NCBI GenBank assembly: GCA_016906335.1
Contig: JADEYG010000009.1
Coordinates: 930,001 to 994,000, forward strand
DNA length: 64,000 nt
Origin: Novakomyces olei
Lineage: Eukaryota
Direction: 5' to 3'
This document shows positions 1,129-61,618 of the stretch, one piece after another (the first letter of the stretch is position 1; each line of letters starts with the position of its first letter). The position numbers and the translations under genes were made by a program. The notes under the pieces are model-generated. The model was not told where the DNA came from. It saw only the letters and a list, made by a program, of their open reading frames with translations, and searched no databases.

Positions 1129-4100
1129 TCAATTGCCCTGCTGCTGCAGCTCTTCCAACTCTAAAGTCATTGTATCGTCAGGAATTCCAGCTCCAGCGTA
1201 GAGGTAATATGCGGGTCTTCTAGCTCCGCGACTCGAGCGAGACTGCATCATTTGTGCTACTCGTTGAAACATGACTTGAAGCACTTGCTGACGTCTTTGT
1301 AACTGATCTTCCCTCCGCTGATAAGTACGCACAAGATTGTGAAGGTAGCTTTCTCTGTACTGAACAGTATTTTCATCGGCCTGTTTTTGCAGACGCTCTA
1401 CTTGTTCTTTGAGAGCCATGTTTTCAGCTGCTATACTGCTCACATTCGCACAAGACTGTTGATACATTGTCCTTATAAACTCAAGCTCTTCTTTTTGCGA
1501 TTGAGTTTGGGACTTGAGACGTTCATTTTCTTGCTTTAAATGCTCATTCTCAAGAACCAAGTTCTCTTCTGGCTTCGTTTGTTTGCTGTCTGCTTGGCTT
1601 TTATCCGTTTCTACAGTCTTAGTCCGAACGCTTGCTAAATCTGCGACTGCAGGTGCACCACTTTGCTTAACTTCATTTCTATTCTCGTTTTTAGCGGCTT
1701 TGAGTTCTCGCAAAGATTCGCGCACAGACACAAGTTTCCCGTTCAATCGTTCAATCCGTTTCTTGTCAGACTCCTGAGCCTTTGCGAGAGCAGAATTACG
1801 CTGCATTTCCACGTCTAATTCCTGTCGGAGCCGATGGAGACGGTTGAATAATCGAAAATATAGAAGTTTGCCTTCTTCCGAGTCTATGCCCATCTCTACC
1901 AAGGAAGCTCCTTCTTCTTGGCCGACGAAGAAATCTTCCCTGGGCGTTAAACGCTCAGGAGGAGCTGGCTCTGTCTCGCCATGATCGGGCTCTGTGTCAT
2001 GCATGACCGTATCAAAAGCCACATCCGTGTCCCAGACTTTGGGAGGTTCAACTATAGCCGTGCTTTGACCAGTGGCCGGCATTTGCTTCATATGAGGATC
2101 ACTAGACTTGTCTTTCAAAATATTAGCCGAATCTCCCTCTGAAACTTCCGTAGGCTTTGGCTTTTCAGCACTTTCAGTGGCAGGCTCTTTAGCGTCAGTG
2201 GCACTTTCTTTTGCCGGCTTTTGTCCAATATCCTCCAGATTTTGCCCTGGATTTTGCACTAGATCTTCTGCCAAGTTCGAGGGCACATTAGCCTTTTTCT
2301 CCCCGGATTCAGTCCTATTTTCTTGCAACTTATCGGCAACCTTAGCTTGCGGCTGATCTGCCTGACGATCCTGCACCAGACTCTCTTCACTCACATCTGC
2401 CTCTTTTCTCGTCTCATCAGCTGCTCTATCAGTGTGAATGCTTTTTTCTGCACTATTTGGCTCAGACTGTCCTGCCGCCCTTTCGTTATACGTTTGCTCA
2501 ATCTCGTTATGGTCCAACGCCTCCTTTTCTCTTCCAATGGCGGCGGCTTTATCGTCCTGAACAATCTCACGCTTTACGCCTATCTCATTTGCTGTTGAAG
2601 GCAATTCTTCCCGCCCATCAACTGTCTTTTCATCCTCATCGATAGCTATAACCTGTGAAAGATTTTGATTCGTTTCGACCGCTTTACCGTCATTGGGCGG
2701 TAGTATTTCGGGAGACTTTCCGGGAAAAGGTTTCTCGACATCTTTTCCCACAGATTTGGAGAACTCTCTCTCATTCTTTGGTTCAACAGAGCCTACCTTG
2801 TTCACAAAATGAAAATCCTGCGACGGTGCCTGTTCATTTGCGGAACTTGAGACAGGCTCAATAGCCTGAGTTTTCACGGGACCTGCTGCTTTGGCTATAA
2901 CAACTGGCTCATCAAGGACAATGACCTGTTCAGAGCCTTGAGCCTTTTCTGCCGATCCATTATTGGTAGAGGCCTTGGCATCGGGTTCACCGATAAAATC
3001 ACCACTTTCATTCGGTCTTTTGCCTTCAATTTCGCTATTACCCGCATCTTGTTCAGGCTCGTCTGTTCCCCAACCTGCTCCCTGTGAATCTGACTGCGCG
3101 TAACGCGGATCTGAAAATCCCCAATCTTTATCGACCGGCTCTTGTGCTTCTTTTTGCAATTCTTTCCCACCCAACGCGATTGCATTCGCACCGGAAGCAA
3201 CCTTTTCGGGATCTTTGGGAACGTTACCATTTTCTTTTGCCTTTTCACCATCATTTGCCATTGCATTAGACCCAAGCTTACCTGCAGCTCGCATTGCCAT
3301 TCCGGCTTTATTTGCTAATTCAATGCTTTTCAGTATTTCCAACTCTTCGAGCTCAGCCTTTCTCCTAGTTCTCACTAGTTTTCTGTGCAAAACTCCGTTC
3401 ATTTTGGCGCGTGGTCGAGGCTTGTAGTATTGGGATTTATCTGCATCGGAAAGCTTTTGCTTTATTTCAACAACCGGCTGTGTCAGCTTTCTGTTTTCTG
3501 TCGTATTATTACTAGAATTTTGTTGTTTTTCTGGAGTAGTAGCGACACGATTGCTTTCTTGCACGAAGCTTTGAGAGCCTAAAGCGTCTTTTTGCAAATC
3601 TGTATCGTTCACTGTTTGCAAATCAATTTCTTTTGCCACATACTTCTCTTTCTGCAAGTTCTCCTCTGGCAAGCGTTCCTGTGGCAAATTTTTCTTTGAC
3701 AAATTGTTTTGTGGAAAATTATGTTTTGACAAACTTTCACTTGGCAAATTCGATTCTTCTTGCAAATTCTTTTCCGACTGCAAATCTTGTTCACTCTGAG
3801 CGTCATTCTCGCTCTGGGTATCAGTCTCCGACGACACATTCTTCTCCTTTTGCTCGTCCCTTTTCAAATTGGAGTCTATTCTCGCTCTGCTTGCGATTTT
3901 GCCCGCCATTTTACCGCGCAAAACACTCTGTATCGAAGACGTAGCTTGCAATTCCATCGGGTCTTTGGCAAGTAACTTTGAGAGCCGCTCGCGGGAGGAC
4001 TTGCTGGCGCTCTTGCTCGTCTCTGATCGGTTGAAAATTGGGTTTCCCGTGGAAATCTTTGAATAATCAATATGCCGAGCGGGTCTGGAATTAACCGCTC

Positions 4101-6870
4101 GTTCTCCAGTATTGGATCCTGCCAGTGCAGGAGAAGCAGGCGTTGTCAAGGAGGCAGAAGAAGAAGGTAGACTCAAAAACGCAGAGGCCGGTGTAGGTGT
4201 GGCACTAGTCATGTTCTTGTGCCCAATCGCATTTGAATCGTTATCAGAGGATACAGTGATAATTGTATCGTTTGAAGATTTTGAGGTGGAGCTTTGGCCC
4301 ACAGAAAGGGATATCGTAGGCAAAACATCGCTCTCGAGGCTGCTGGCATCAGGCTGAGTATCGAAGAGTCTAGACTTTTTGTCCGGGGACAGTGGAGTCG
4401 CTGTTGTTCCCGACCCTATTTCGCCATGTTGACGTTTTCTGGACGTGGGAATTCTATCGCGTTCTCCGCCAGACGAGGCCACTGTTGATCGGGCGTCTGT
4501 CGTCCGAGAACTATCTGTGCCCTGAGAAGGCAGGACGACGTTTGCGAGTTCGGGCACATTAAACTCCGCCGCTGGAATATAAGCGATTTTGTCCCAGAGA
4601 AAAGGCCGAGGTGGCAGAAAAGTAGGAGAGGCATCTCTCATTGCATTCAAACAGCTTTGCACCCAAAGCGTTAGCCTTCTAGCTTGTTTTAATCGGTTTT
4701 CTTCGTCAGCAATTTGAACATTTTCCAGCGAATTAAAGGAACCTAGAGCTATTTGTAGCAGATCAACCCAGCGGAGGGAAGACACTGCAATTTCGTCCTC
4801 ACCCCGAGCACGAGAAAGGGAAAGCAGGAAATGGTCAGCGCCATAAGGCGTATAAAATTCTATCACTGGAACATTTGATTTTTTCTTCCCCCGAAGCGCT
4901 CTAATACCAAGGAGAGAGCTCATAGACAGGACAAAATCGGCTCCTTCAACATTTAGAATGCCGTCGGTAGGAATAGTCTTGTAGGCAATAAAGCACTTAG
5001 ATTTTGGCTGAAATAGAACCTCGTTTTTTGCATATTTGAATCCTAAATATTGCAGAGCCCATCGGGCAATCGTGTCAAACGTTTCATCAGAATCAACAAA
5101 AATGATTTTACATTTATTTTGAGCTAATCGTTCAATCAGATCTAGAACAATTGATAATCGCGGCGATGCGTCTTGCATGAAAAAATTCCTTTCTGCCCGC
5201 GGCATAGCATGTATACTGGACCCGTTTATATCATAGGTTTCAAACAGCTCACCCTCTGCTTCCTGTGGGTAGACAGCAAGCCGTAAAAGATCTTTAACGA
5301 GCCGCTCCAACTGGTTTTGGTCTCGTTCAGTCGGCTCTGTATCCGATCCCATCTCACCGAGGGCCTTCAAGTTTGTGTAGAGCAGCTTCTGCATTAAGAG
5401 CTTTTGAGTTTGAGAAAGGCCGATGGGTACACTGAGAATATTGACTGACTCTAATTTTCTTAGTGCCTTGTAATGGGGGCGCGGTGGGGGAGTTTTAATA
5501 TCGAGCTGAGTAGCCAAAACATTGAGCTGAGGTTCTTGTGCATTTTTCAACGGTGTAGCCATTACTTGTGACTTTGCTGATGAGGATTCTGAGGTTGGTA
5601 CTGCTTTCACAGTTTTTTCGTTTTCGTTTTCTTTTTCGTTTCCTCTTTCTATTTCTGAATTTGCCCAACCAAAAGGCTCAAATGCCGTTGATGACCGAGG
5701 TTTTTGAGAAGCTAAACTGCTAAACCAGCCTTGGCCTCCTGAAGAGCGATTGGAACTTGAATTACCGCTGTTCTTTGACGCAGAGCTACTAAGCCATCCA
5801 CCTCTACTGCCTTCTCGCTCAGTCACTGGCTGATGCGCTCTAGGGTGTTCCGGCGGCCGGCTCCGCGGATCTTCCCTCACATCAGAGCGGCGCTCAGATG
5901 ATTCCCAACTCTTTGTTTCCCTGGCCGATTCCACACTGCGATCTCTTCTCGAAGACGATAAGCTCTGTCCTCGCCTTCGCTCTTGGCTACGGCTCCTTTT
6001 CGAGTCTGACGAATATGGTTTGGCCGTGTCCACACTGCGATCAGATTTCAGACTTGCCCATCCATCTTTTCTGGAACTTGCTGCATTGCTATCAGATCGT
6101 GCACTCCATCCGTCGGATTTTGTTTGATTTTGGTTACCAGCATCCCAGCCGTTGCTTCTAGATCCATCTTGAGCCGGCTTTCCCCACTCTGATCTAGATC
6201 CTTCTGCAGGCAGAGCCGAAGAGGACGATGATGAAGCTGATTCTCCATGACTCGATCTTGCTGCCGCCTCATTGTTATCCTGATTGAGCCAGCCAGTTTT
6301 GTTATTGCTGCTTGCATCACGTCTATTCTCATCCAGAGCAATCTTGCTCTCTGGTCTCTGAGCATCATTGCGACCCGAGCTCCAGGCATCCCCGCGAATA
6401 GGTACACTGTCCCATCCTCTTGAGCCTGAATCGCTACCCGAGTCCTTATCCAGCCAGCTATAAACCTGAGCCGTTTTGCGTTCACTACTACCCTGTCCCG
6501 GATTACTTTCTTTTGTTTCCGCAGGTGATACTTGCAAATCCGTACTTTGCTGTATAGATCCATTATCCGTAACAGACGCTTGCACTTGTTCAGGCTGATC
6601 TTTTCCGCGTTTCTTTACCGACCAGCCACTGGGTAGGTTCAATTTGTTACCTTGATTCGCAGTCACGGCTGCATCATTGCTTTCTGGGTTGTTTGTCAGT
6701 TTCTCATCGGTAAACGGAGCGAATCGGCTTCGACGAAGTAAAGTCTGCGCTTGACTGTACATTAACGTGTCCTCATCCGTTTCCTCGTTTTGCTTTGTAG
6801 CATTATCAGAATCAGCCGCTAAAACAGGTGCATCCCGCCCGCCATTTGCTCCATTGGAGGCAGCCGACAT
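1129..6870 (-). CDS. Large single-exon protein (1913 aa): GW/WG-rich disordered N-terminus, central HDA2/3-like (Ccq1-like) globular domain, long acidic linker, C-terminal coiled coil
   Basis: 5.7-kb stop-free ORF, first ATG at 6870. Globular segment at about 4580-5440 (ILSVPIGLSQTQK...SPRLSIVLDLIERL...KIIFVD) resembles the HDA1 complex subunit 2/3 fold. The coiled coil LEFIRTMYQQS...ENMALKEQVERLQKQADEN resembles fungal Ccq1-like proteins (from memory). ORF is certain; family call is tentative. Confidence 0.6.
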   Translation of the reverse strand: MSAASNGANGGRDAPVLAADSDNATKQNEETDEDTLMYSQAQTLLRRSRFAPFTDEKLTNNPESNDAAVTANQGNKLNLPSGWSVKKRGKDQPEQVQASVTDNGSIQQSTDLQVSPAETKESNPGQGSSERKTAQVYSWLDKDSGSDSGSRGWDSVPIRGDAWSSGRNDAQRPESKIALDENRRDASSNNKTGWLNQDNNEAAARSSHGESASSSSSSALPAEGSRSEWGKPAQDGSRSNGWDAGNQNQTKSDGWSARSDSNAASSRKDGWASLKSDRSVDTAKPYSSDSKRSRSQERRRGQSLSSSRRDRSVESARETKSWESSERRSDVREDPRSRPPEHPRAHQPVTEREGSRGGWLSSSASKNSGNSSSNRSSGGQGWFSSLASQKPRSSTAFEPFGWANSEIERGNEKENENEKTVKAVPTSESSSAKSQVMATPLKNAQEPQLNVLATQLDIKTPPPRPHYKALRKLESVNILSVPIGLSQTQKLLMQKLLYTNLKALGEMGSDTEPTERDQNQLERLVKDLLRLAVYPQEAEGELFETYDINGSSIHAMPRAERNFFMQDASPRLSIVLDLIERLAQNKCKIIFVDSDETFDTIARWALQYLGFKYAKNEVLFQPKSKCFIAYKTIPTDGILNVEGADFVLSMSSLLGIRALRGKKKSNVPVIEFYTPYGADHFLLSLSRARGEDEIAVSSLRWVDLLQIALGSFNSLENVQIADEENRLKQARRLTLWVQSCLNAMRDASPTFLPPRPFLWDKIAYIPAAEFNVPELANVVLPSQGTDSSRTTDARSTVASSGGERDRIPTSRKRQHGEIGSGTTATPLSPDKKSRLFDTQPDASSLESDVLPTISLSVGQSSTSKSSNDTIITVSSDNDSNAIGHKNMTSATPTPASAFLSLPSSSASLTTPASPALAGSNTGERAVNSRPARHIDYSKISTGNPIFNRSETSKSASKSSRERLSKLLAKDPMELQATSSIQSVLRGKMAGKIASRARIDSNLKRDEQKEKNVSSETDTQSENDAQSEQDLQSEKNLQEESNLPSESLSKHNFPQNNLSKKNLPQERLPEENLQKEKYVAKEIDLQTVNDTDLQKDALGSQSFVQESNRVATTPEKQQNSSNNTTENRKLTQPVVEIKQKLSDADKSQYYKPRPRAKMNGVLHRKLVRTRRKAELEELEILKSIELANKAGMAMRAAGKLGSNAMANDGEKAKENGNVPKDPEKVASGANAIALGGKELQKEAQEPVDKDWGFSDPRYAQSDSQGAGWGTDEPEQDAGNSEIEGKRPNESGDFIGEPDAKASTNNGSAEKAQGSEQVIVLDEPVVIAKAAGPVKTQAIEPVSSSANEQAPSQDFHFVNKVGSVEPKNEREFSKSVGKDVEKPFPGKSPEILPPNDGKAVETNQNLSQVIAIDEDEKTVDGREELPSTANEIGVKREIVQDDKAAAIGREKEALDHNEIEQTYNERAAGQSEPNSAEKSIHTDRAADETRKEADVSEESLVQDRQADQPQAKVADKLQENRTESGEKKANVPSNLAEDLVQNPGQNLEDIGQKPAKESATDAKEPATESAEKPKPTEVSEGDSANILKDKSSDPHMKQMPATGQSTAIVEPPKVWDTDVAFDTVMHDTEPDHGETEPAPPERLTPREDFFVGQEEGASLVEMGIDSEEGKLLYFRLFNRLHRLRQELDVEMQRNSALAKAQESDKKRIERLNGKLVSVRESLRELKAAKNENRNEVKQSGAPAVADLASVRTKTVETDKSQADSKQTKPEENLVLENEHLKQENERLKSQTQSQKEELEFIRTMYQQSCANVSSIAAENMALKEQVERLQKQADENTVQYRESYLHNLVRTYQRREDQLQRRQQVLQVMFQRVAQMMQSRSSRGARRPAYYLYAGAGIPDDTMTLELEELQQQGN

Positions 6871-7122
6871 AGCCTTTTTATTGAAATGCTTCACGAACCT
6901 TTACGGCGCGTAGAATCAAAGTGGCTTTTCGGGAGCGACACCGTTAATTTTGTTAATTCATAGCAAAATCAACGTTTCTGAATTACACCAAAGATGAGCT
7001 GATTGTAGATCGGTGGATGATTGTGACAAGACGTTACTAAAGAACTGCACGCGTTCCTTTAACACTTTGATCTCGCCTGTGGGTCTTCTATGCGAATGTT
7101 CTTGGTATGTAGTTTATAATAT

Positions 7123-7206
7123 AAACCCTAACTAACCATGAAAATGTACAGATAATATTCCAGTCGAATACAAGACTCGTTACGGTCATGCCTCTTAGGG
7201 TTAGGG
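7123..7206. promoter_or_regulatory. Telomere-like boxes (AAACCCTAACTAACC 7123-7137; TTAGGGTTAGGG 7195-7206) in the divergent promoter of the ccq1-like gene and SRP54
   Basis: Seen directly; match the binding consensus of Myb-domain factors Tbf1/Teb1/Tay1. Confidence 0.55.
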
Positions 7207-7416
7207 CCACGTCTTCATACTTCAATACGGTGTTACCATAGCCGAATAATCGACTGCTAGTATCCACTTATATTAATGTTTGAAGAATCGACTATAGAAT
7301 AATTATATTTCGTTTGGGCTTCGTAAATATACACGAATCACTAAGAGATCGAGGATCTTACTCGAGCAAAAGTACCTGGGCATTATTTAATTTAAAAATT
7401 GAATTAAGCGGCCGCC

Positions 7417-9492
<2,076 letters not shown>

Positions 9493-10255: not shown

Positions 10256-11615
10256 ATGGCGGACGCAAACCTGCAAGGCTTGCAAGAAGCATTGATCAAA
10301 TCAATAGATCAAACCTGGACTGGCGCAGAAGAATATATTAAAGGCGAAGTCACAGTTAAGTGGCCTCTTGATAGAGCGACAAATTCTGTATCATTAATTC
10401 TCGCAAGTCCGCGTCTGCAGGACCGACTAAGCCCTAATGGAAAATTAAAACTAACTTTTCATGGCGAGGCGGCCACGTTTGCGAAGGCTAATATACTCTC
10501 TGGTCAGACTATAGGCATTTTGGGGCTATTGAATGTATCTGCGAACACTTCGCATCCGGAGGACGCAGAGTATGAAGTTGTTTATCCGGAAAATGTTTGG
10601 ATTCAGGTTTGGGCCAATGGTGAATTGCTCCATGAAACGCAGATCTCCTCGAGGCCCGCTCAGCTAACAAATGAATCTTCAATACAGAATTTGTCTATTC
10701 AACCTAGCACTTCAACGAGTTCGGGCCGCTTTTCTTTAACGAATGATAATTCTGGTAATCATATTTTTAAAAGCGGCGAGCAAAGTGAGAGCGTAAAGTT
10801 TTTCACCCAAAGTCAAGACGAGATTTTGGATGGAAGTGCTTCGTCTTTAATCCCTAGCCAGCTAACATTCGCCAACAAAAACGGGGACCAGGATCGGGCT
10901 TTACTTCAAAATGTTGATTTACTGGATGATGCTCTGCCTTTGGCTTTGAGCGGCCCTCAACGAATACAAGACATGCAAAATGCGCTGGAAGTATCGGCAC
11001 AGAAACAAGCATCGTTGTTGTTTGAGCAAGAGGTCGAACTGGAATTTCAAGACGAATTAATTACACCTTTATCTTTTTACCCTTCAATAAGCATGCTTCG
11101 TCCTAATCTGACTGTGGATATTATGGGTGTAGTCGTGTCGCTGAGCAATATTATTCATGCCCCCAAGGGACCACGTAAGTCGATTTAAATGCAAACAGCA
11201 GATTATCTGATAGTTTTTATTCTTATCCTGACAATCATTTAAATTCATTATTATTTTATGGCTTGCCTTCTTTTAATACTTACATATAGGCGACTTTTAC
11301 ATTGCCTTTGAAATAATTGACCCAACAAGGCCTTCAAGAGAGACTGGCTTAGAATGCTTTATATTTCGGCCTTCAGCAAAAGCTTTGCCCGATCTTTCTG
11401 TTGGCTCCGCTATTTTATTAAGATCGTTCCGTGTTAGAAGGCAGAACCATAGGCTGATGGCTTCCTCAACGGAAGAAAGTGCTTGGGGTGTTTGGCAGAC
11501 GGGATCCCGGCTTCAAGTCTTGGGTCCTCCTCTCGAATGGGGCGAAATGGAGTATGAGCGATTATCGCTTTTGAATTTATGGTATAGCAATTCCATTGCA
11601 AGTGACAGGGGATAA
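10256..11615 (+). CDS. POT1-related two-OB-fold protein (N-terminal OB plus C-terminal Telo_bind/POT1-type OB), 414 aa, 2 exons
   Basis: Exons 10256-11174 and 11290-11615 join in frame (1245 nt). C-terminus VDIMGVVVS...KGPRDFYIAFEIIDPT...FIFRPSAKALPDLSVGSAILLRSFRV is a POT1 OB1-like pattern. N-terminus IKGEVTVKWP...LKLTFHG is OB-like. Confidence 0.75.
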
Positions 11616-20063: not shown

Positions 20064-21305
20064 TTAACTATGCAAAATCTGGCAAGCAACAATCAAGATC
20101 ATACAAACCCATTTTGGCCGCAGGTTTGAAGAGTCACTCTTTAAGCATGGACAAGGAGATCCATCGTGGCAATGACACGTGCAGTCTTGACCTGGAGGAC
20201 AGACCTCAGCTGCGCCTTGACGATTCGCTTCTTGAGGGTGGGCACCATTTTCAGGAGGAGCGCCATAGCTTATAGGTGCACTCTGAGCAATTGGCGTATA
20301 GTAGTAAATCAAAGAGTCTGCTGCCGAAGAAGTCTGAGCGGGCTGCTGAATCGACTGAGCTTCAGATGATGTCTTGTTGACAGGCTCATTACTGAAAATT
20401 GCAGCATTCTCCTCGTTTTTGGTTCCGTTTGGTTTGAGGATTCGGCTACTAGTCAGATCAATTGACTCTGTCTCTTTTTCCTCTGACATTTTACTCGCAA
20501 CTTGGCCGTTCTCTTCCTCACCATCTATGTCGCTGGTACCGCTCTTCTCTCGTTGAACATTTTCCTTTTCTCCATGTTTGTTTGTACCATCACTTGAGCC
20601 ATTCAAATCAGTTGAATTGCCAATATCGACAGCTGATCCGCTTCTGCTCGATTCCATTGAAATAAGTAGGTCCTCTTCCTGCCCAGCTGTTGCACCGTTG
20701 CCAGTCTTGTCGTCATATTCTTCCTCCAAATCTATGTAATAATCTTCTTCTTCATTTCCCCCAATCCTTGGCTGAATCTCATCGGCTTCAGCTTGATTAT
20801 TACTGGTTTTTTCGCTGGTCACCATTTCTCCAGCTTCATTAATTTCGCCAGCTTTGTTCACTTTGTCAGTTTCATTCTGTACCCGATCTTGCTCAGACAC
20901 ACTAGACGGATCTCTATTCTCGCCCGGACCAGCTTCATGCTCCGACAAGTCTCCACTTTCACGTTCGTTTGCTGCTTCATTCGCACCGGCCTCTGTCTCG
21001 CGATCGTCTCCAGGCGCGTTTCCAAATGTGCCCTCTGGGCTTCCCCCTTCGTCGTCACAAGTGCAGACGCTTATAGGAACATTTTCAGGAAATCCGCTGT
21101 CCAGCGAAAGAGTGGCAATATTGACTTCTTCGGCTGTCAATTCGCGCCATCCACAAGCACAGCTGCAGCATTCGCTGGTGCCGCCTAAATGCCTCCACAG
21201 AAAGTCTTCGTCTTTTATTACTGTATCGTTGCCAATTGGCTTTATGTCACAAACAGCCACACTAAACAGCAGCAGCTGCGCGTAGATTGCAAGCCAGCAC
21301 GCCAT
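20064..21305 (-). CDS. Secreted, probably GPI-anchored acidic protein with Cys-rich ends, 413 aa
   Basis: Signal peptide, ECCSCACGW and VCTC, E/N/S-rich spacer with NxS/T sites, CPPGQDCTCHCHDGSPCPC, then small residues and a hydrophobic tail. Confidence 0.75.
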   Translation of the reverse strand: MACWLAIYAQLLLFSVAVCDIKPIGNDTVIKDEDFLWRHLGGTSECCSCACGWRELTAEEVNIATLSLDSGFPENVPISVCTCDDEGGSPEGTFGNAPGDDRETEAGANEAANERESGDLSEHEAGPGENRDPSSVSEQDRVQNETDKVNKAGEINEAGEMVTSEKTSNNQAEADEIQPRIGGNEEEDYYIDLEEEYDDKTGNGATAGQEEDLLISMESSRSGSAVDIGNSTDLNGSSDGTNKHGEKENVQREKSGTSDIDGEEENGQVASKMSEEKETESIDLTSSRILKPNGTKNEENAAIFSNEPVNKTSSEAQSIQQPAQTSSAADSLIYYYTPIAQSAPISYGAPPENGAHPQEANRQGAAEVCPPGQDCTCHCHDGSPCPCLKSDSSNLRPKWVCMILIVACQILHS

Positions 21306-21903
21306 TTGAGGGATAGACGCTTCACTGTCTGTCGCACGAGATTAGTTGTGTCTGCAAAAGCGTGTCACATGATTCGGTTTCAGTCTCCGTCGCTGTCAGA
21401 GCCAAATAAGAAAAGCTTTAGTTGCTCCATTGCTCTTTTCTTCAAACTTGTGAGTTTTCATTGCAGCAAATGTTATTACGGTATTGTTAAAGCATTGCCT
21501 ATCAACTCGCTGCGAGACCGATCTGTAAAGTTCGCCTTTTCAGTAGCTCCAATGCCATATTGCGATAGTGATTAATATAATTAATTAATTATACGAGTAG
21601 ACAAAATAAAATAGATAATAATATAAGCTATAAAGGAAAGTTCATGGAAATCAAAATCGTCTTATCAAAGTCTAGTATTAATATCGTCAGAATAAAAGTA
21701 AAAGATATATTGATTGCTTTATTATTTTCAATTATTATTTTCAATTATTATTTTCAATAAAAAGTTTAATAATTTAAAATAATATACTAGAAGACAAATA
21801 TATAATAACTAATTGTCTTATCTGCCATTACTGATTGATTGCTATCGCGCTGGTCGGCTGTTGTTCTGCATTGTAAGATTATCACTTTTGTAGAGATAAT
21901 CAA

Positions 21904-37955: not shown

Positions 37956-38424
37956 CAATGTCCGCTGATTTCAAATATATAATAAGCACCGATCCAGCCG
38001 ATGCTCTCTTGAACCCGTGCCGACCCCACGCGAATTGAGCTCCCGTTGGCAGTCGATACTATGTTGTGCGTGCGTATTACTACAGTAGTAAGTACAATAA
38101 ATGTATTGTGTTTTATATACCCCACAAGGTGCACCTCCATCTCCGTATATTACTTACTGTTGTTATATATTGGATCCAATACGAATAAAATATATGTTTT
38201 GGCTCTTATTTTTCCATGTACTAGTTTTATTCAAATAAATACTGTATTCAGCAGTACTATACTATACTTTATTATACTATACTTTATTATACTATGCTTT
38301 AATATACTATACTTGACTCTACTTTATTATACTATACTACCCAATTTCATTATTTTATTCTGTCATTCTTTTGGAGCCGCCATTTTACTTGTCGACACGC
38401 CTTCGAACCGATTGCCGGCCGACA

Positions 38425-39909
38425 ATGTCGATGGCGCGTTTAAGGGACACGGTCGCGCGTTTATGGACGAGTGGTCCGCGTTTTACGCGAGTGAAAACCA
38501 GTGATGGAGCAGAAGATGAGGAAGGCAAAGCCAGTCATTTCTCGACAATTCCGGTGGAAGATAAAGCGCGTGTTTCTCGACCCAAGCGTCATTTACTAAT
38601 AGCCGTCTTGGCATTGCTGCTCTTGGCCGCGTGCAGTGCCCTGCTTTTCCAAAAGAGGCCGCGCACACCGTACTCGATCTCACAGAGACCAGCAAATTTT
38701 GGTTACTTTGGCCGGAGCGTCCCTTTGACCCTCTCTGCGTCTCATATAGTCGATCTTTCCCGGCCGCTGGAGGATCAAGATGGCGGTACGGAGCGCGGCC
38801 ATTCTCTGTCCATTGTCATTAGCGGAGGACGGGCGGGTACTATAAACTTTCTCCCCCCTGACCAAACCGTGCTGCACCCGCCTCGTCGATTCTCAGGCGA
38901 GGAGGAATCCTCAAAGGACGGCAAAGCAGACTCTTCTGACGAGCACAATCCAGAGTCTGATCCGGACTATACGAATTACGATTATCGCCGATTTTGGAAG
39001 CGTGAGAACACTAGGGAAATTGCCTCCATATCCGCCCATATTGGGGGGCGTAGAGACCTGCTGTCACGTGCTCATACCACGTACGGCGAGGGCACGTGGG
39101 AATTGGTGTTGCCCCAGCAACAGCCAGCCCTGTTGAACGGAAGTGCCGCTGATGTTTTCCCCGGTGAGGAGGAGGATTGTTTACAGTACGCTATGGACGT
39201 ACGACTGCCCTACACTTTACGCGAACTCGCAGTCGTGTCCGATGGACCTGTCCACATCGCTCTGGACGAGTACGTGGTTGCCGCTGCTTCTCAGAGAGAC
39301 GCAGCCCTGAAAAGGCTGAGTATTGTCAATAAGCATTTCAAACGGAGTGCAGAGGCGAAGCGAGCTGCTAATCATGTCGAGAGCAGTATTATATTGCTGC
39401 CAGAACTTGCAAATTTACAGGCAGCAACACAAAGCATCGGCAGTAGTCTTTCACTCAAAAGCTTAAATATGGATTTGCAAAACAGCAATTGCATAGTGAA
39501 TGGAAGCGTTGTCGTCACTGACTTTGTGGATTTGCATTCTAATGCGTCGGCGATAGACTTACGTCTGGTTCTGCGATCAAATGAGCAAGATGGCGCGGTT
39601 CGCGTTGCAGCGGATTGCCATTCAGGCCAGACCAACATTGATATTATAAGGCCGAGGCGGCAATCTTGGGTGCCATTGAACGCTACAATAGTAGATGCGG
39701 GAAATGCGGGGTCAATTGCTCTGCAACTCTATGGCGGGCTGTTGGGAACGTACACTGTAGAAGGTCCAAATGCCGCACTAGGGCCGGGACTGGGTGCGGA
39801 GGAGGGCAATATACTTCGAGGGGAGGCCACTGTCGGGCCTGCGCAAGTCGAGGCGAGTGACGTAATCGAGATTAAGAGCAGTACAGCGAGGTTGGATGTA
39901 GAGGAATAG
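38425..39909 (+). CDS. Uncharacterised type II membrane protein with a beta-strand-rich ectodomain, 494 aa, intronless
   Basis: ATG 38425; basic stretch then TM LLIAVLALLLLAACSALLF; C-terminal repeated short beta-like segments. Confidence 0.75.
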   Translation: MSMARLRDTVARLWTSGPRFTRVKTSDGAEDEEGKASHFSTIPVEDKARVSRPKRHLLIAVLALLLLAACSALLFQKRPRTPYSISQRPANFGYFGRSVPLTLSASHIVDLSRPLEDQDGGTERGHSLSIVISGGRAGTINFLPPDQTVLHPPRRFSGEEESSKDGKADSSDEHNPESDPDYTNYDYRRFWKRENTREIASISAHIGGRRDLLSRAHTTYGEGTWELVLPQQQPALLNGSAADVFPGEEEDCLQYAMDVRLPYTLRELAVVSDGPVHIALDEYVVAAASQRDAALKRLSIVNKHFKRSAEAKRAANHVESSIILLPELANLQAATQSIGSSLSLKSLNMDLQNSNCIVNGSVVVTDFVDLHSNASAIDLRLVLRSNEQDGAVRVAADCHSGQTNIDIIRPRRQSWVPLNATIVDAGNAGSIALQLYGGLLGTYTVEGPNAALGPGLGAEEGNILRGEATVGPAQVEASDVIEIKSSTARLDVEE

Positions 39910-50494: not shown

Positions 50495-52782
50495 TCATGG
50501 CTCTTCTCCCACAATCTTGATCCCAAAGCCTTGCCACCTGCGAACGTGCTCTTGCTGAGCAGAACCGATGTTAGGGCTACCGACAACCGGAGCCTGCTTG
50601 GTCACATAATATTCTATCAAGCAGGGCTCACACCACTTTGTATCGCTCGGGCTCAATTCATCAACGCTTGCATTTGCGTCATTTTCAAGGTTACCCCACA
50701 GCTGCGCGAGCCGTTGCCGCAGTCTCATCGCCACTCGTTTAGTTTTCCATAAACTGCTGTTAATAAAAGGAACACGTTTAAAAACATAAGCCAATCCTTA
50801 CTTCATGGGCATGATCGTACGGTCATTTATCAATGCCTCTGCGTTCCGATCGGTAAAGATAACAGGGATTGTTGCCCCATCCAAACCTTCAAAAAGAATC
50901 ATAAACTTCCAGCAATATGGACAATAGGACGCAAGAACACCGCACGAAGCACAACGCTCGCCAATGCTATTACTCAGTATAACTTGGTTAAATGCAGCTG
51001 TATTCTTACAATATATTGCAGGCTCGACAAAAAGGCTGTGCAAAATCCTCTACATTGACGGGGAGAAAGTCCACGGGCCGTGCAAATATACGTAGCAATT
51101 TTGGCTTTGGTTCTTCTTGAATCGGCCGATGTAATATATCTCCAACCACACTGAAAGGCACGTTTTGAAATGCACAGTGGACTTTTAATTAGTTTGAACT
51201 GACAAGGGAAAATCAACTTTATTAAAAAATCAATAAAATATAAAATATAAAAATGCAACACATAAAAACAAAAACTTACCGTTATTATTTAATTTTTCCT
51301 TGGGTAGTTTTGCCCGTAACTCTTCTGTCTCTTTGAGCTTTATTAACCGCTCATGTTCTCGCATATGTGCTTGAAATGCCTCCGTGTACCGCTTCTTACG
51401 CCTGAATGGTTATTTTCGAATATGAAAAAGCAAAAAAAAGTAAAGATTTCCTATAATAATTATTCATTATAGCATTATTTTTTGACCCGCCTATGATGAT
51501 AATTGCCAGCATCACATTCTGGTCAAGGAGCCCAATAAACATTTGAAATAGTCTGTCACAATTTCTTGTCATATAATCTATTTTGCTATCCTTACCCTAT
51601 TAAAGGAGCGACAGCAGCACTCTGTTTCGGCTGTTTTGACAATAATATTTTATCCGGGTACTTTTGATCGCCATGAAGAACCCCCTCCAGGAACCCCGAC
51701 TGGTTAACACGCCCCCGTAAATTTTGCAAAAACAATATATCTCCTGCACGAACGCTTTTACGGCAGTACGTATGGCCAGCATCAAAAACAGAGACTTTCA
51801 ACGTATATTTGCCGTAAGGACCTTGCCAATTAGACCCATACTCCCTTGGCTTGAGTAAAGGATTCTTTGAGTAGTCTGTGACTAGCAGTTCCGTGTAATC
51901 GTTATGATCATAAGACTGCAAAACTTCGGCATAAATAGCATGAAATCTATCGCGTTCCATCTCTTTGATTTTTATAGGCTGCCGTGAAGAACGTGTTAGG
52001 GCCCCAGAAGAAGAGGCTCCAGCAGACCCATTTGGCGCCCCATTCTCACTGCCTTTATCTGCACCACTTTCCACAGCTAATGGAGACGTTTCATACTGCT
52101 GGCGCAGTTTGGCCGCCTCATCATCCGAATCTGCAGTCACTTGCGTCATTGCCCGCGGCCCAGTGGGCGGAAATCGCGAGCCGTCAGTCGCCCACTGGGC
52201 AAAGCGGGTACGGAAATTTGAGAGCAATTGTACGTGGTCATTGTACAGGGTAACTTTAATATTTTTCAGTAACAAAACCTCTCCAACACTGTGGATGTCT
52301 GGCAGCGCTTCTATTGTCGCACCGAAAAACACTACGCGTACCGTGGACGATGAGCCCGCGGACAGGTCGTCGCTAAGTGTAAACGTTACATTGGTTTCTT
52401 TTAATATTAGACACGAAGATAGGTAAATAGGATAATTCAACAAAACAACGGAAAAAACTGTCGAGACAGCTGACGGACAGCTGACGGACAGCTGACGGAC
52501 AGCTGACAGAGATAATTCGAAATAAAAAAAATTATGTTTATATATATCAGACATGAAACAAAGAGCGCGCGCAATCAGAACGTATCTTACCCCCAATCTT
52601 GGTCGGGCCAGGTCGCCGGTGGCTGATAACGAGACCCAAAACGTCTACTGTAACACCAACAAACTGCCGTAGATCGCGTATTGCGATTATTCCAGAATTT
52701 GCCTATTTGCTGTGTCAGTTTAAAGAGGTTTAGCGGCACATACTGAAGTGCCATCTTGATCTTGCGCAATTGTATCTTCCAT
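50495..52782 (-). CDS. POT1: Protection of telomeres protein Pot1, 7 exons
   Basis: OB1 VDVLGLVI...FTLSD...VVFF...LPDIHSVGEVLLL; OB2 ELLVTDYSKNPLL...WQGPYGKYTLKV...LEGVLHGD; OB3 DFLP..VEDF, WKFMILFE, LAQLWGNLE, IEYYV, RRWQGFG. Confidence 0.93.
52465..52507. repeat. 11-nt tandem repeat (GACAGCTGACG) x3.9 in POT1 intron 2
   Basis: Seen directly; each unit contains the E-box palindrome CAGCTG. Confidence 0.9.
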
Positions 52783-59918: not shown

Positions 59919-61618
59919 TCATCGCGGCCGATTAGCACCGTGGCGCTGGCTATTTACCTCCTCGTCCTCTGAAGCGCGATGGTGGAGATCATCATCAGGG
60001 TTAGTAACCCTAAAAACTTTGCGCGAGTAATCCTCCTCGTCGCGTAAAGAAGTCCGTGAATAGTTGCTGTCAAACCGCATCATTAGACTGCGAGGATCGA
60101 CCCGCTGGTCCACGACCAAAGCTCCCTGGCCATAAGGATCATTGTCAAACTGGCCCAAAGGCGGTGAAGAGCCGTCGTGGGCCGAATTGTTATGAGGAGC
60201 CCAGTGATGATGGTGAGCAGCTGTAGAGTTTGTATGAGACGCACTAGACGTTAAGCCAGTACGGCTGTTTGTACGGGCATGGCGGCCGCCAAAGATTCCA
60301 GCCAGACTCGTTATTATAGAGGACCCACTTCCATCAATGGCTCCGTCCGCATCGTGCCGAGATTTCATCTCGGGACTTGCATCAAAGACCATATCCGCCT
60401 CGCGATTACGTCGCCATCTTTGATAGATTAAGAACCCTAACAGGAACAAAAGTGCTGCCGCGACGAGGCCCACAACGACAAATACACCTGCTACTTTGCC
60501 AGAACTCCTAAAGAAAGCATTGCCGCCTCCACTGCCATTAGACGCAGACGAGTGTTCCTCAGCCGTACTTGCAGTCGACGAGGGCCTTGAAGGTGTGGAG
60601 GAAGGTGTGGGTGCCAATGAGGACGAAAAGGCCGAGCTGGACAAAGTAGAACTTGAGCTAGAGGCCAAAGTAGTACTAGTACTGGTACTAGTAGTACTAG
60701 TACTGGTACTAGTAGTACTGGTACTAGTGCTTGTACTGGATGGACTAGTAGAGCTAGATGAACTACTAGTGCTAGTAGTACTGCTCGAAGCCTGTTTGTT
60801 AGAAAAAGAAACGTGGCTCACTTACTATTGAGGGCGTCACAAAGACGGTCATGATTGACGGAGCTTGAGACGATGCAGAAGAGGACGCAGGCGAGGAGGA
60901 GGAGGGGGAAGAAGAAGGCTGTGAAGGGGTATTTGAAATAAAAACTGTAGTAACCTCAGGCGCAATGCTCGACTGAGGGCTGGAAGACGAAGGTGAAGAA
61001 GAAGAGGCAGCGAGTGTAGACGAAGGCTGGCCCAATTGGTAGTAAATGTATAACCCATTATCTTGACTTCCACAATCATTGTCGCCGTACCCGGGACATG
61101 GATCGTTGCAGTTGCCCAAGTCCGTTGTCTCGCCCGGTCTTACATTACTGCACCAACATTGGAAATTGAGAACAACAGCGTAAGCGTAACCCGCACACTG
61201 GTCCGAACATGAGCCCATTGATTGGAACTGATTGTATACTAGAACCGTTAGATTTGTAGTCTTTATGTATACCTGGAAATTGGCATTGTTGTCATCGTTG
61301 AATGTCCACTTTTTGTTTTATTCTTTTTGCTTTATTCATTTTGTTTATTATTATTATTTTTTTGGTTTGTTTTTTGGTTATTTTTTTTTATTCGCGTTGC
61401 TTTATTCTTTGATCGATTTCTGTCTGTTTATCTTTTCTCTAATTGATCTCTGTAGATTGCTGTTTTCTTTCCACGTCTTCCACCTTACCTGGATCGTAAT
61501 CGGACCCCGTGTTTTGAGACGAGCATAGTGACTGTGCTCGCACGAGTGCAGGTACGAGGAGAGATAGAATCAGAGTCGGGAATGACACGTGCCGCCGGCG
61601 GGCCGTGTGACATTTCAT
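59919..61618 (-). CDS. WSC1: WSC-domain cell-wall stress sensor, 3 exons
   Basis: Signal peptide, CSSQNT...FQSMGSCSDQC...CWCSN...CPGY..CG WSC domain, S/T stalk, TM VAGVFVVVGL, tail DQR.DP...SLRDEEDYSRKV.RVTNPD; 34-nt intron 60825-60792. Confidence 0.93.

Follow-up and report, generated by a model that had tools for sequence, protein, structure and literature searches.

What could be the role of a long protein in which an N-terminal array of glycine-adjacent tryptophans (Trp) is followed by a single globular segment and a putative terminal coiled coil? The question is raised by a gene on the minus strand of a 64,000-nucleotide stretch of Novakomyces olei contig JADEYG010000009.1, which was analyzed as a whole and is referred to here as the window; all nucleotide positions are those of the window. 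The initial annotation had described the gene product as ten GW/WG motifs of the kind that hook Argonaute, fused to a coiled-coil protein resembling Ccq1 and Hda2/Hda3, and had suggested a single-chain adaptor between small-RNA-loaded Argonaute and class II histone deacetylase (HDAC) or telomeric heterochromatin. We find that the gene is real and that its product is an unusual orphan scaffold protein. An adaptor role from Argonaute to HDAC is plausible but unproven, and it is considered below as a candidate function. The full 1913-residue protein is designated P0001, and its residues 440-800, which contain the globular segment, are designated P0002.

The first ATG of the P0001 open reading frame (ORF) lies at 6870, and the stop-to-stop frame extends to 6900 in the ORF listing of the window. 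The guanine-cytosine content around the 5.7-kb frame is 42-47%, and a frame that remains uninterrupted over this length at such a composition cannot be attributed to chance. No convincing introns were found in the ORF by a loose regular-expression scan, which also missed the known introns of the neighboring SRP54 gene, and no RNA is listed among the sequencing runs that carry P0001 DNA. Low-depth pieces of the gene with 0 differing letters are present in runs X2 and X3, which belong to a study other than that of the possible source run X1, and thus the same organism was present in other samples. The four DNA runs compared showed identical sequence only, with no diverged strain or relative; run X4 and two other short pieces are unrelated, low-likeness matches.

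The Trp array is the most distinctive property of the protein. P0001 contains 20 Trp in total when every one is listed, and 13 of these fall within aa 1-440 (positions 83, 139, 153, 163, 194, 229, 242, 255, 271, 322, 359, 382, and 402), with a spacing of 10-56 residues from one Trp to the next. Ten of the 13 adjoin a glycine, in the contexts SGWS, RGWD, TGWL, EWGK, NGWD, DGWS, DGWA, GGWL, QGWF, and FGWA. This arrangement is not random: when aa 1-440 were shuffled, the mean number of Gly-adjacent Trp was 1.88, and not one of 100,000 shuffles reached the 10 observed. Moreover, Gly adjoins 12 of the 16 Trp that lie in low-hydrophobicity stretches of P0001 but 5 of the 68 in the remaining 23 window frames that span at least 200 aa from stop to stop (Fisher p 7.6e-8), and it adjoins none of the four Trp in the globular segment of P0001 itself. 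The motifs differ from one another in their Gly codons and flanks, and no tandem or direct DNA repeat was found beneath them; they are therefore not the recent duplication of one unit. The initial annotation had described this region accurately. All ten contexts that it named are present among the 13 N-terminal Trp, the coordinates that it gave for the array (5665-6627) run exactly from Gly82 to Trp402, and the two additional motifs that it placed at 3067-3123, DWGF and AGWG, both exist.

The composition of the region is equally characteristic. Residues 81-410 consist of S (22.7%), R (10.3%), G (8.8%), A (7.9%), D (7.0%), E (6.7%), N (5.2%), and W (3.9%), while C and M are absent (0 each) and F (0.9%), H (0.9%), and Y (0.6%) are depleted; together with a hydrophobic content of 12.4%, this bears out the earlier characterization of the N-terminal stretch as rich in S, D, G, and R. 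WG/GW Argonaute-binding domains have been described as rich in G, S, and W, then in E, D, and N, and as low in C, F, H, M, and Y (PMC2910046). Judged by composition, aa 81-410 match this published description, with the qualification that their Arg content is higher than the description mentions.

Two further observations concern the array and its border. An arginine/serine-rich (RS-like) block at aa 286-345 recalls the RS domains of splicing-related proteins and may point to RNA-processing bodies, not to chromatin. Just past the array, an imperfect microsatellite with a hexamer unit (TTTTCG/TTTTTC as read on the plus strand, 5614-5656) encodes a NEKENENEK run. Several short extra contigs of run X1 end at this microsatellite with a variant repeat as their loose end, which suggests heterogeneity of repeat length in that sample.

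Downstream of the array, the protein alternates between segments of clearly different hydrophobic content, which amounts to 35.5% in aa 481-790, 18-19% in aa 791-1150 and 1231-1640, and 26.7% in aa 1641-1913. The second half of the long linker is acidic, with a net charge of -42 over aa 1231-1640. Heptad-patterned, proline-free stretches occur in P0001 only at aa 1693-1736 and 1778-1877, according to a simple heuristic of our own. From the hydrophobic content and the heptad stretches taken together, it follows that the order of GW array, globular segment, long linker, and putative terminal coiled coil is correct. The annotated succession of a globular segment and a terminal coiled coil after the GW array is thus present, the coiled coil being assigned by the heptad heuristic. 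The ESM Atlas neighbors of the C-terminus are generic coiled-coil clusters only, and a prediction of a two-copy complex for aa 1640-1913 scored 0.18 against a mark of 0.32. As a separate observation, the linker contains two motifs resembling SUMO-interaction motifs, at aa 870 (IITV+SSDNDS, approximately 4240-4263) and aa 1407 (VIAIDEDE, approximately 2629-2652), both on the minus strand; a third such string, VIVLDEP near aa 1320, fell below the filter.

We propose that the gene is fast-evolving and lineage-restricted in a fungus-like eukaryote and that its product, P0001, would be a large and for the most part disordered scaffold protein, probably located in the nucleus and composed of three parts. 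The first part (aa 82-402) would be an N-terminal multivalent Trp platform, each Trp being set in a small or polar Gly/Ser context, and its most likely role would be to engage pockets for Trp on a partner protein, for which Argonaute is the strongest single candidate. The second part, the central domain, would probably be a catalytically dead SNF2-type second helicase lobe that lacks the first lobe. The N-terminal domains of Hda2, Hda3, and Ccq1 have this fold and are arranged in the same way, as a lone second lobe, and in P0001 such a lobe may act as a DNA-binding or partner-binding module. The third part, the C-terminal coiled coil, could serve for self-association or for holding an effector, in the way that Hda1 is held by the coiled coils of Hda2/Hda3 and Clr3 by that of Ccq1. 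As a whole, the protein would bridge a Trp-pocket protein, namely small-RNA-loaded Argonaute, to a chromatin-silencing assembly. Of the elements of this proposal, the motif array with its non-random pattern, the order of the domains, and the lack of ATPase motifs are observed, and the disorder, the helicase-lobe fold, the coiled coil, all binding partners, and the nuclear location are inferred. We put forward this three-part bridge between the small-RNA machinery and a silencing assembly tentatively, as one possibility among several. A more specific version, in which one chain carries a multivalent Argonaute hook fused to a pseudo-helicase of the Hda2/Hda3/Ccq1 type and a coiled coil, holds a class II HDAC or a shelterin-like complex, and so allows small RNAs to direct deacetylation without an intermediary resembling the RNA-induced transcriptional silencing (RITS) complex, appears quite unlikely. 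The degrees of confidence expressed for these readings and for their rivals overlap and are not meant to sum to one.

The central segment probably has a helicase-lobe fold, and the evidence for this comes from three kinds of comparison. In the ESM Atlas, the top match was a eukaryotic cluster in which 69% of the members carry PF11496 (score 0.91), and all remaining named matches were Helicase_C/SNF2 clusters. A hidden Markov model (HMM) built from 27 bacterial SNF2 second lobes gave 6.7 bits on P0002, compared with 2.8 bits for the best of 500 shuffles; its match sits at the expected start of lobe 2 ('SGK...KvliFsqf'), and none of the window's other long frames scored above -0.5. With hhalign, 140 columns aligned collinearly with motifs IV-VI of SNF2 lobe 2 (P 0.0068, probability 5.6%; alignment A1 gave P 0.002, probability 14%), and none of 163 shuffles was as good as the real score of 26.7. 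Read by eye, 7 of the 19 invariant or near-invariant columns of the bacterial lobe 2 profile are identical in P0002 (F39, F79, L99, N100, V107, R125, and R128). More specifically, motif V keeps its L-N and motif VI its two arginines, and the W-N-P and G-Q positions are lost. When the SNF2-lobe profile A1 was compared with the PDB, 345 sequences were matched, and the best 60 of these 345 were all active SNF2 enzymes. Walker A (G-x4-GK[ST]) and DEAH (DE[AH][HDQ]) motifs are absent from all 1913 residues.

A considerable number of results, some of them on the fold and some on the array, speak against the proposed scaffold and have to be set beside this evidence. Pfam HDA2-3 (PF11496, cut-off 27 bits) and Helicase_C did not match P0001 at E<=1 or P0002 at E<=10. 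The ESM Atlas match covers 159 of 256 features, fewer than the 170 that are usual for same-family matches, and one third of shuffled proteins obtain ten matches from the same clan; the HDA2-3 match is therefore a lead only. An earlier profile of six lobes gave P0002 0.9 bits, less than the 4.7 bits of the best shuffles, and the best hhalign shuffle (25.6) comes near the real score, at a probability of only 5.6-14%. Single-sequence AlphaFold2 (AF2) models of aa 440-800 and aa 556-770 were unusable (predicted local distance difference test, pLDDT, 38.6 and 42.5). A phmmer search of the PDB returned FtsZ (E 0.14) as its sole match, which was taken as chance. Finally, about 900 residues separate the globular domain from the coiled coil in P0001, whereas these follow each other in close succession in Hda2/3 and Ccq1.

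It is conceivable on these grounds that the central domain bears no real relation to helicases, that P0001 is an orphan of unrelated function, and that the likeness to SNF2 lobe 2 arose by chance. Every similarity measure lies below conventional significance, and the high-scoring hhalign shuffle and the unusable AF2 models also count in favor of this explanation. Against it stands the agreement of three partly independent weak signals, namely the ESM Atlas, the HMM, and the hhalign alignment with its 7 of 19 key columns, on both fold and register; we regard a chance likeness as rather doubtful. Membership of P0001 in PF11496 is unproven. Of the HDA2/3-like label in the initial annotation, what stands is the likeness to the top ESM Atlas cluster, the collinear, low-probability hhalign alignment to SNF2 lobe 2, and the lack of ATPase lobe 1 motifs, and what does not stand is assignment to the Pfam family; profile and structure comparison of the central domain likewise left a weak lobe 2 alignment, with no HDA2-3 match from Pfam and no usable model from AF2.

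Another explanation is that P0001 is this organism's plain Hda2 or Hda3 subunit of the class II HDAC complex, which has been swollen by lineage-specific disordered insertions, its GW motifs having no role in RNA silencing. The order of a helicase-lobe-like domain and a coiled coil is the same as in Hda2/Hda3, and both the top ESM Atlas match and the weak lobe 2 alignment point in this direction. However, PF11496 gave no match, homology searches retrieved no fungal Hda2/Hda3 although these are widespread in fungi, and the non-random GW pattern would be left to be explained. Thus, we consider it unlikely that P0001 is an ordinary subunit of this kind.

The array-related points against the proposed scaffold concern the choice of partner. 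Predictors of WG/GW domains are known to score G/S-rich low-complexity proteins falsely as positive (PMC2910046). No orthologue that could show selection on the Trp of the array was found in the protein and metagenome searches. In addition, according to a survey from 2025, the three pockets that bind Trp vary in fungal Argonautes, with only pocket 3 distinctly conserved (PMC12477606), and the prior for docking to Argonaute is somewhat lower as a result. Alternatively, the GW array may serve as a generic sticker of aromatic residues or as a dock for some other Trp-pocket protein, with no involvement of Argonaute, and it may promote condensation or RNA binding in concert with the RS-like stretch. 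Pockets of the CCR4-NOT type, adaptor ears, and Atg8 are examples of other Trp-binding sites. Even spacing of Trp within a Ser/Gly/Arg-rich stretch that includes the RS-like block favors such a role, as do the occurrence of SR-type and G/S-rich proteins among the predictor false positives (PMC2910046), the variability of the fungal Argonaute pockets (PMC12477606), and the fact that two of the motifs (GWDSV and GWASL) also fit W-x-x-[LV]. On the other hand, the strong and specific preference for Gly before Trp (9 GW) is not needed by a generic sticker, and the composition of the region fits the Argonaute-binding class. We hold this explanation with the same tentative confidence as the three-part scaffold that has Argonaute as its candidate partner.

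The orphan status of P0001 rests on searches that covered protein lengths up to 3348 aa. Word-seeded protein searches gave no homologue of aa 440-800 at E<=0.001 among 4755 candidates of near length, none of aa 470-780 at E<=10 among 5841 candidates of shorter length, and none of aa 1630-1913 at E<=0.1 among 3228 candidates of near length. With P0002 as the query, phmmer had 0 matches among 1.84 billion representative proteins, and an exact look-up of P0001 in the protein collection found it absent. Metagenome scans produced 187 pattern matches with P0002 and 596 with P0001, and 0 were confirmed in either case. PF11496 was without a match in one bacterial genome and 14 control genomes, and Piwi/PAZ without a match among the 18 long frames of the 64-kb window that were scanned. 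No similarity to Ccq1 was detected in the PDB, the 1.84 billion representatives, or 5.8 billion clusters, and the Ccq1-like label of the initial annotation thus has no counterpart that is detectable by sequence. Minor Pfam matches below cut-off, namely Glyco_hydro_1 (E 0.22) alone on P0001 and RMI1_N_N (0.0097) and a transporter domain (0.13) on P0002, were taken as chance. The positions of all features are collected in the table.

Table. Features of the P0001 gene, with positions in the window
Feature	Residues (aa)	Position	Strand	Description or basis
Whole ORF (P0001)		1129..6870	-	1913 aa + stop; apparently single exon
GW/WG array	82-402	5665..6627	-	13 Trp, 10 Gly-adjacent (9 GW, 1 WG); no DNA repeat beneath
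Arg/Ser-rich (RS-like) block SKRSRSQERRRGQSLSSSRRDRS... inside GW array	286-345	5836..6015	-	Translation and composition
Globular segment (~310 residues)	481-790	4501..5430	-	35.5% VILMFYW; hydrophobic content; mixed helix/strand in low-confidence AF2 models
SNF2 lobe 2-like stretch, putative degenerate HDA2/3-type pseudo-helicase core	567-707	4750..5172	-	HMM, hhalign, ESM Atlas
Long low-hydrophobicity linker (~850 residues)	791-1640	1951..4500	-	Composition
Two further Gly-adjacent Trp: DWGF (W1250, 3121-3123) and AGWG (W1267, 3070-3072)		3067..3123	-	Trp listing
Pro-free heptad-patterned stretches, putative coiled coil	1693-1736 and 1778-1877	1240..1794	-	Simple heptad heuristic

The neighbors of P0001 in the window are ordinary eukaryotic genes, which encode SRP54, a bZIP protein, kinases, Vps35, SDA1, a mitochondrial-type elongation factor G (EF-G), and Pot1. 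The SRP54 gene is divergently oriented upstream of the P0001 gene, with its ATG at 7418 and its first exons split by short GT...AG introns, and the two genes have in common a divergent intergenic region of approximately 550 bp (6871-7417). Four long frames of 300-530 aa are without a Pfam match at E<=0.001, at 10256-11188 (+), 20064-21341 (-), 38317-39909 (+), and 59919-60821 (-). A Pot1-type fragment at 51592-52644 (-) contains a POT1 domain (Pfam E 3.7e-12) and a Pot1pC domain (2.9e-23), and its PDB matches are chains of 'Protection of telomeres protein 1' only (7cuh, E 2.7e-23). With these two domains, the organism appears to have a single-strand telomere binder of the fission yeast style.

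A further alternative is that P0001 is the Ccq1 orthologue, a shelterin accessory that recruits telomerase and the Snf2/HDAC repressor complex (SHREC). In favor of this, Ccq1 is structurally homologous to HDA2/3 and ends in a coiled coil, and the Pot1 of the organism is of the S. pombe type, with the Pot1pC domain. Nonetheless, P0001 is similar in sequence to nothing, Ccq1 included, and, compared with Ccq1 (735 aa), is 2.6 times as long. Pot1 and the GW gene lie 45 kb apart, probably by coincidence, and this constitutes no evidence. We therefore judge orthology with Ccq1 to be highly improbable and return to the three-part scaffold as the reading to be compared with known systems.

If this scaffold functions as proposed, it would represent a new wiring of RNA interference (RNAi) to chromatin, in which an Argonaute hook is placed directly on a scaffold of the HDAC-complex type, and P0001 would offer a compact test object for combinations of a GW platform and an effector module outside plants, animals, and fission yeast. 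If the proposal is wrong, P0001 is still an unusually Trp-rich orphan protein that is probably disordered. In either case, the gene carries a caution, as fast-evolving disordered scaffolds are invisible to homology annotation and can be read only by motif statistics and weak fold signals.

Among known systems, the second lobe of SNF2-family remodeller ATPases aligns weakly but collinearly with P0001 over motifs IV-VI. P0001 differs from these enzymes in having neither the first lobe nor the Walker A and DEAH motifs, and it cannot be an ATPase. The GW/WG Argonaute-hook proteins, which include S. pombe Tas3, Cryptococcus Gwo1, plant NRPE1/SPT5L, and animal GW182/TNRC6, possess reiterated GW/WG motifs in a disordered region rich in G/S/W/D/E/N and poor in C/M/F/H/Y, and so does P0001, in which the region is probably disordered as well. 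In those proteins the partner domains are a Chp1-binding/TAM module, a polymerase, a KOW domain, or a silencing domain, unlike the putative dead helicase lobe and coiled coil of P0001, for which Argonaute binding is a candidate property only. No sequence homology was found between P0001 and Tas3, Gwo1, NRPE1/SPT5L, or GW182/TNRC6. In fungi, Tas3 of the RITS complex, a protein with a GW domain, connects Ago1 to chromatin (PMC8466458), and Gwo1 is a partner of Ago1 in Cryptococcus (PMC6643885).

Hda2 and Hda3, the non-catalytic PF11496 proteins of the yeast class II HDAC complex, resemble P0001 in the succession of a putative lobe without ATP motifs and a coiled coil. P0001 is about three times longer than these proteins and is distinguished from them by its GW-rich N-terminus of approximately 440 residues. 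Hda2/Hda3 are described as having an N-terminal domain like the second lobe of superfamily 2 (SF2) helicases, without ATP motifs, plus, at the C-terminus, a coiled coil that acts as a scaffold for the HDAC complex (PMC7793584); no GW array in either protein turned up in the literature searched. Fungal Hda1 carries a domain named 'Argonaute-binding protein 2' (ARB2) (PMC7793584), although the sources consulted do not show Argonaute binding by this domain.

S. pombe Ccq1 combines an HDA2/3-like fold with a C-terminal coiled coil that binds the HDAC Clr3, although its similarity to P0001 is undetectable. More specifically, Ccq1 is a structural homologue of HDA2/3 in which aa 500-735 form a coiled coil that both dimerises and binds Clr3 (PMC5778466), and it links shelterin, as a targeting system, to SHREC and to the Clr4 methyltransferase complex (ClrC) (PMC8466458). 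In the literature searched, we found no pairing of Ccq1 with an Argonaute hook or of HDA2-3 with tryptophan, and no description of an architecture that joins a GW array to Hda2, Hda3, or Ccq1. The two ways in which S. pombe arrives at subtelomeric heterochromatin, one by RNAi and the other by Ccq1/shelterin, are reported to be separate and redundant (PMC8466458). P0001 would hold in one chain what S. pombe keeps apart and, since the two routes are separate there, the fusion of both in P0001 would constitute a new variant.

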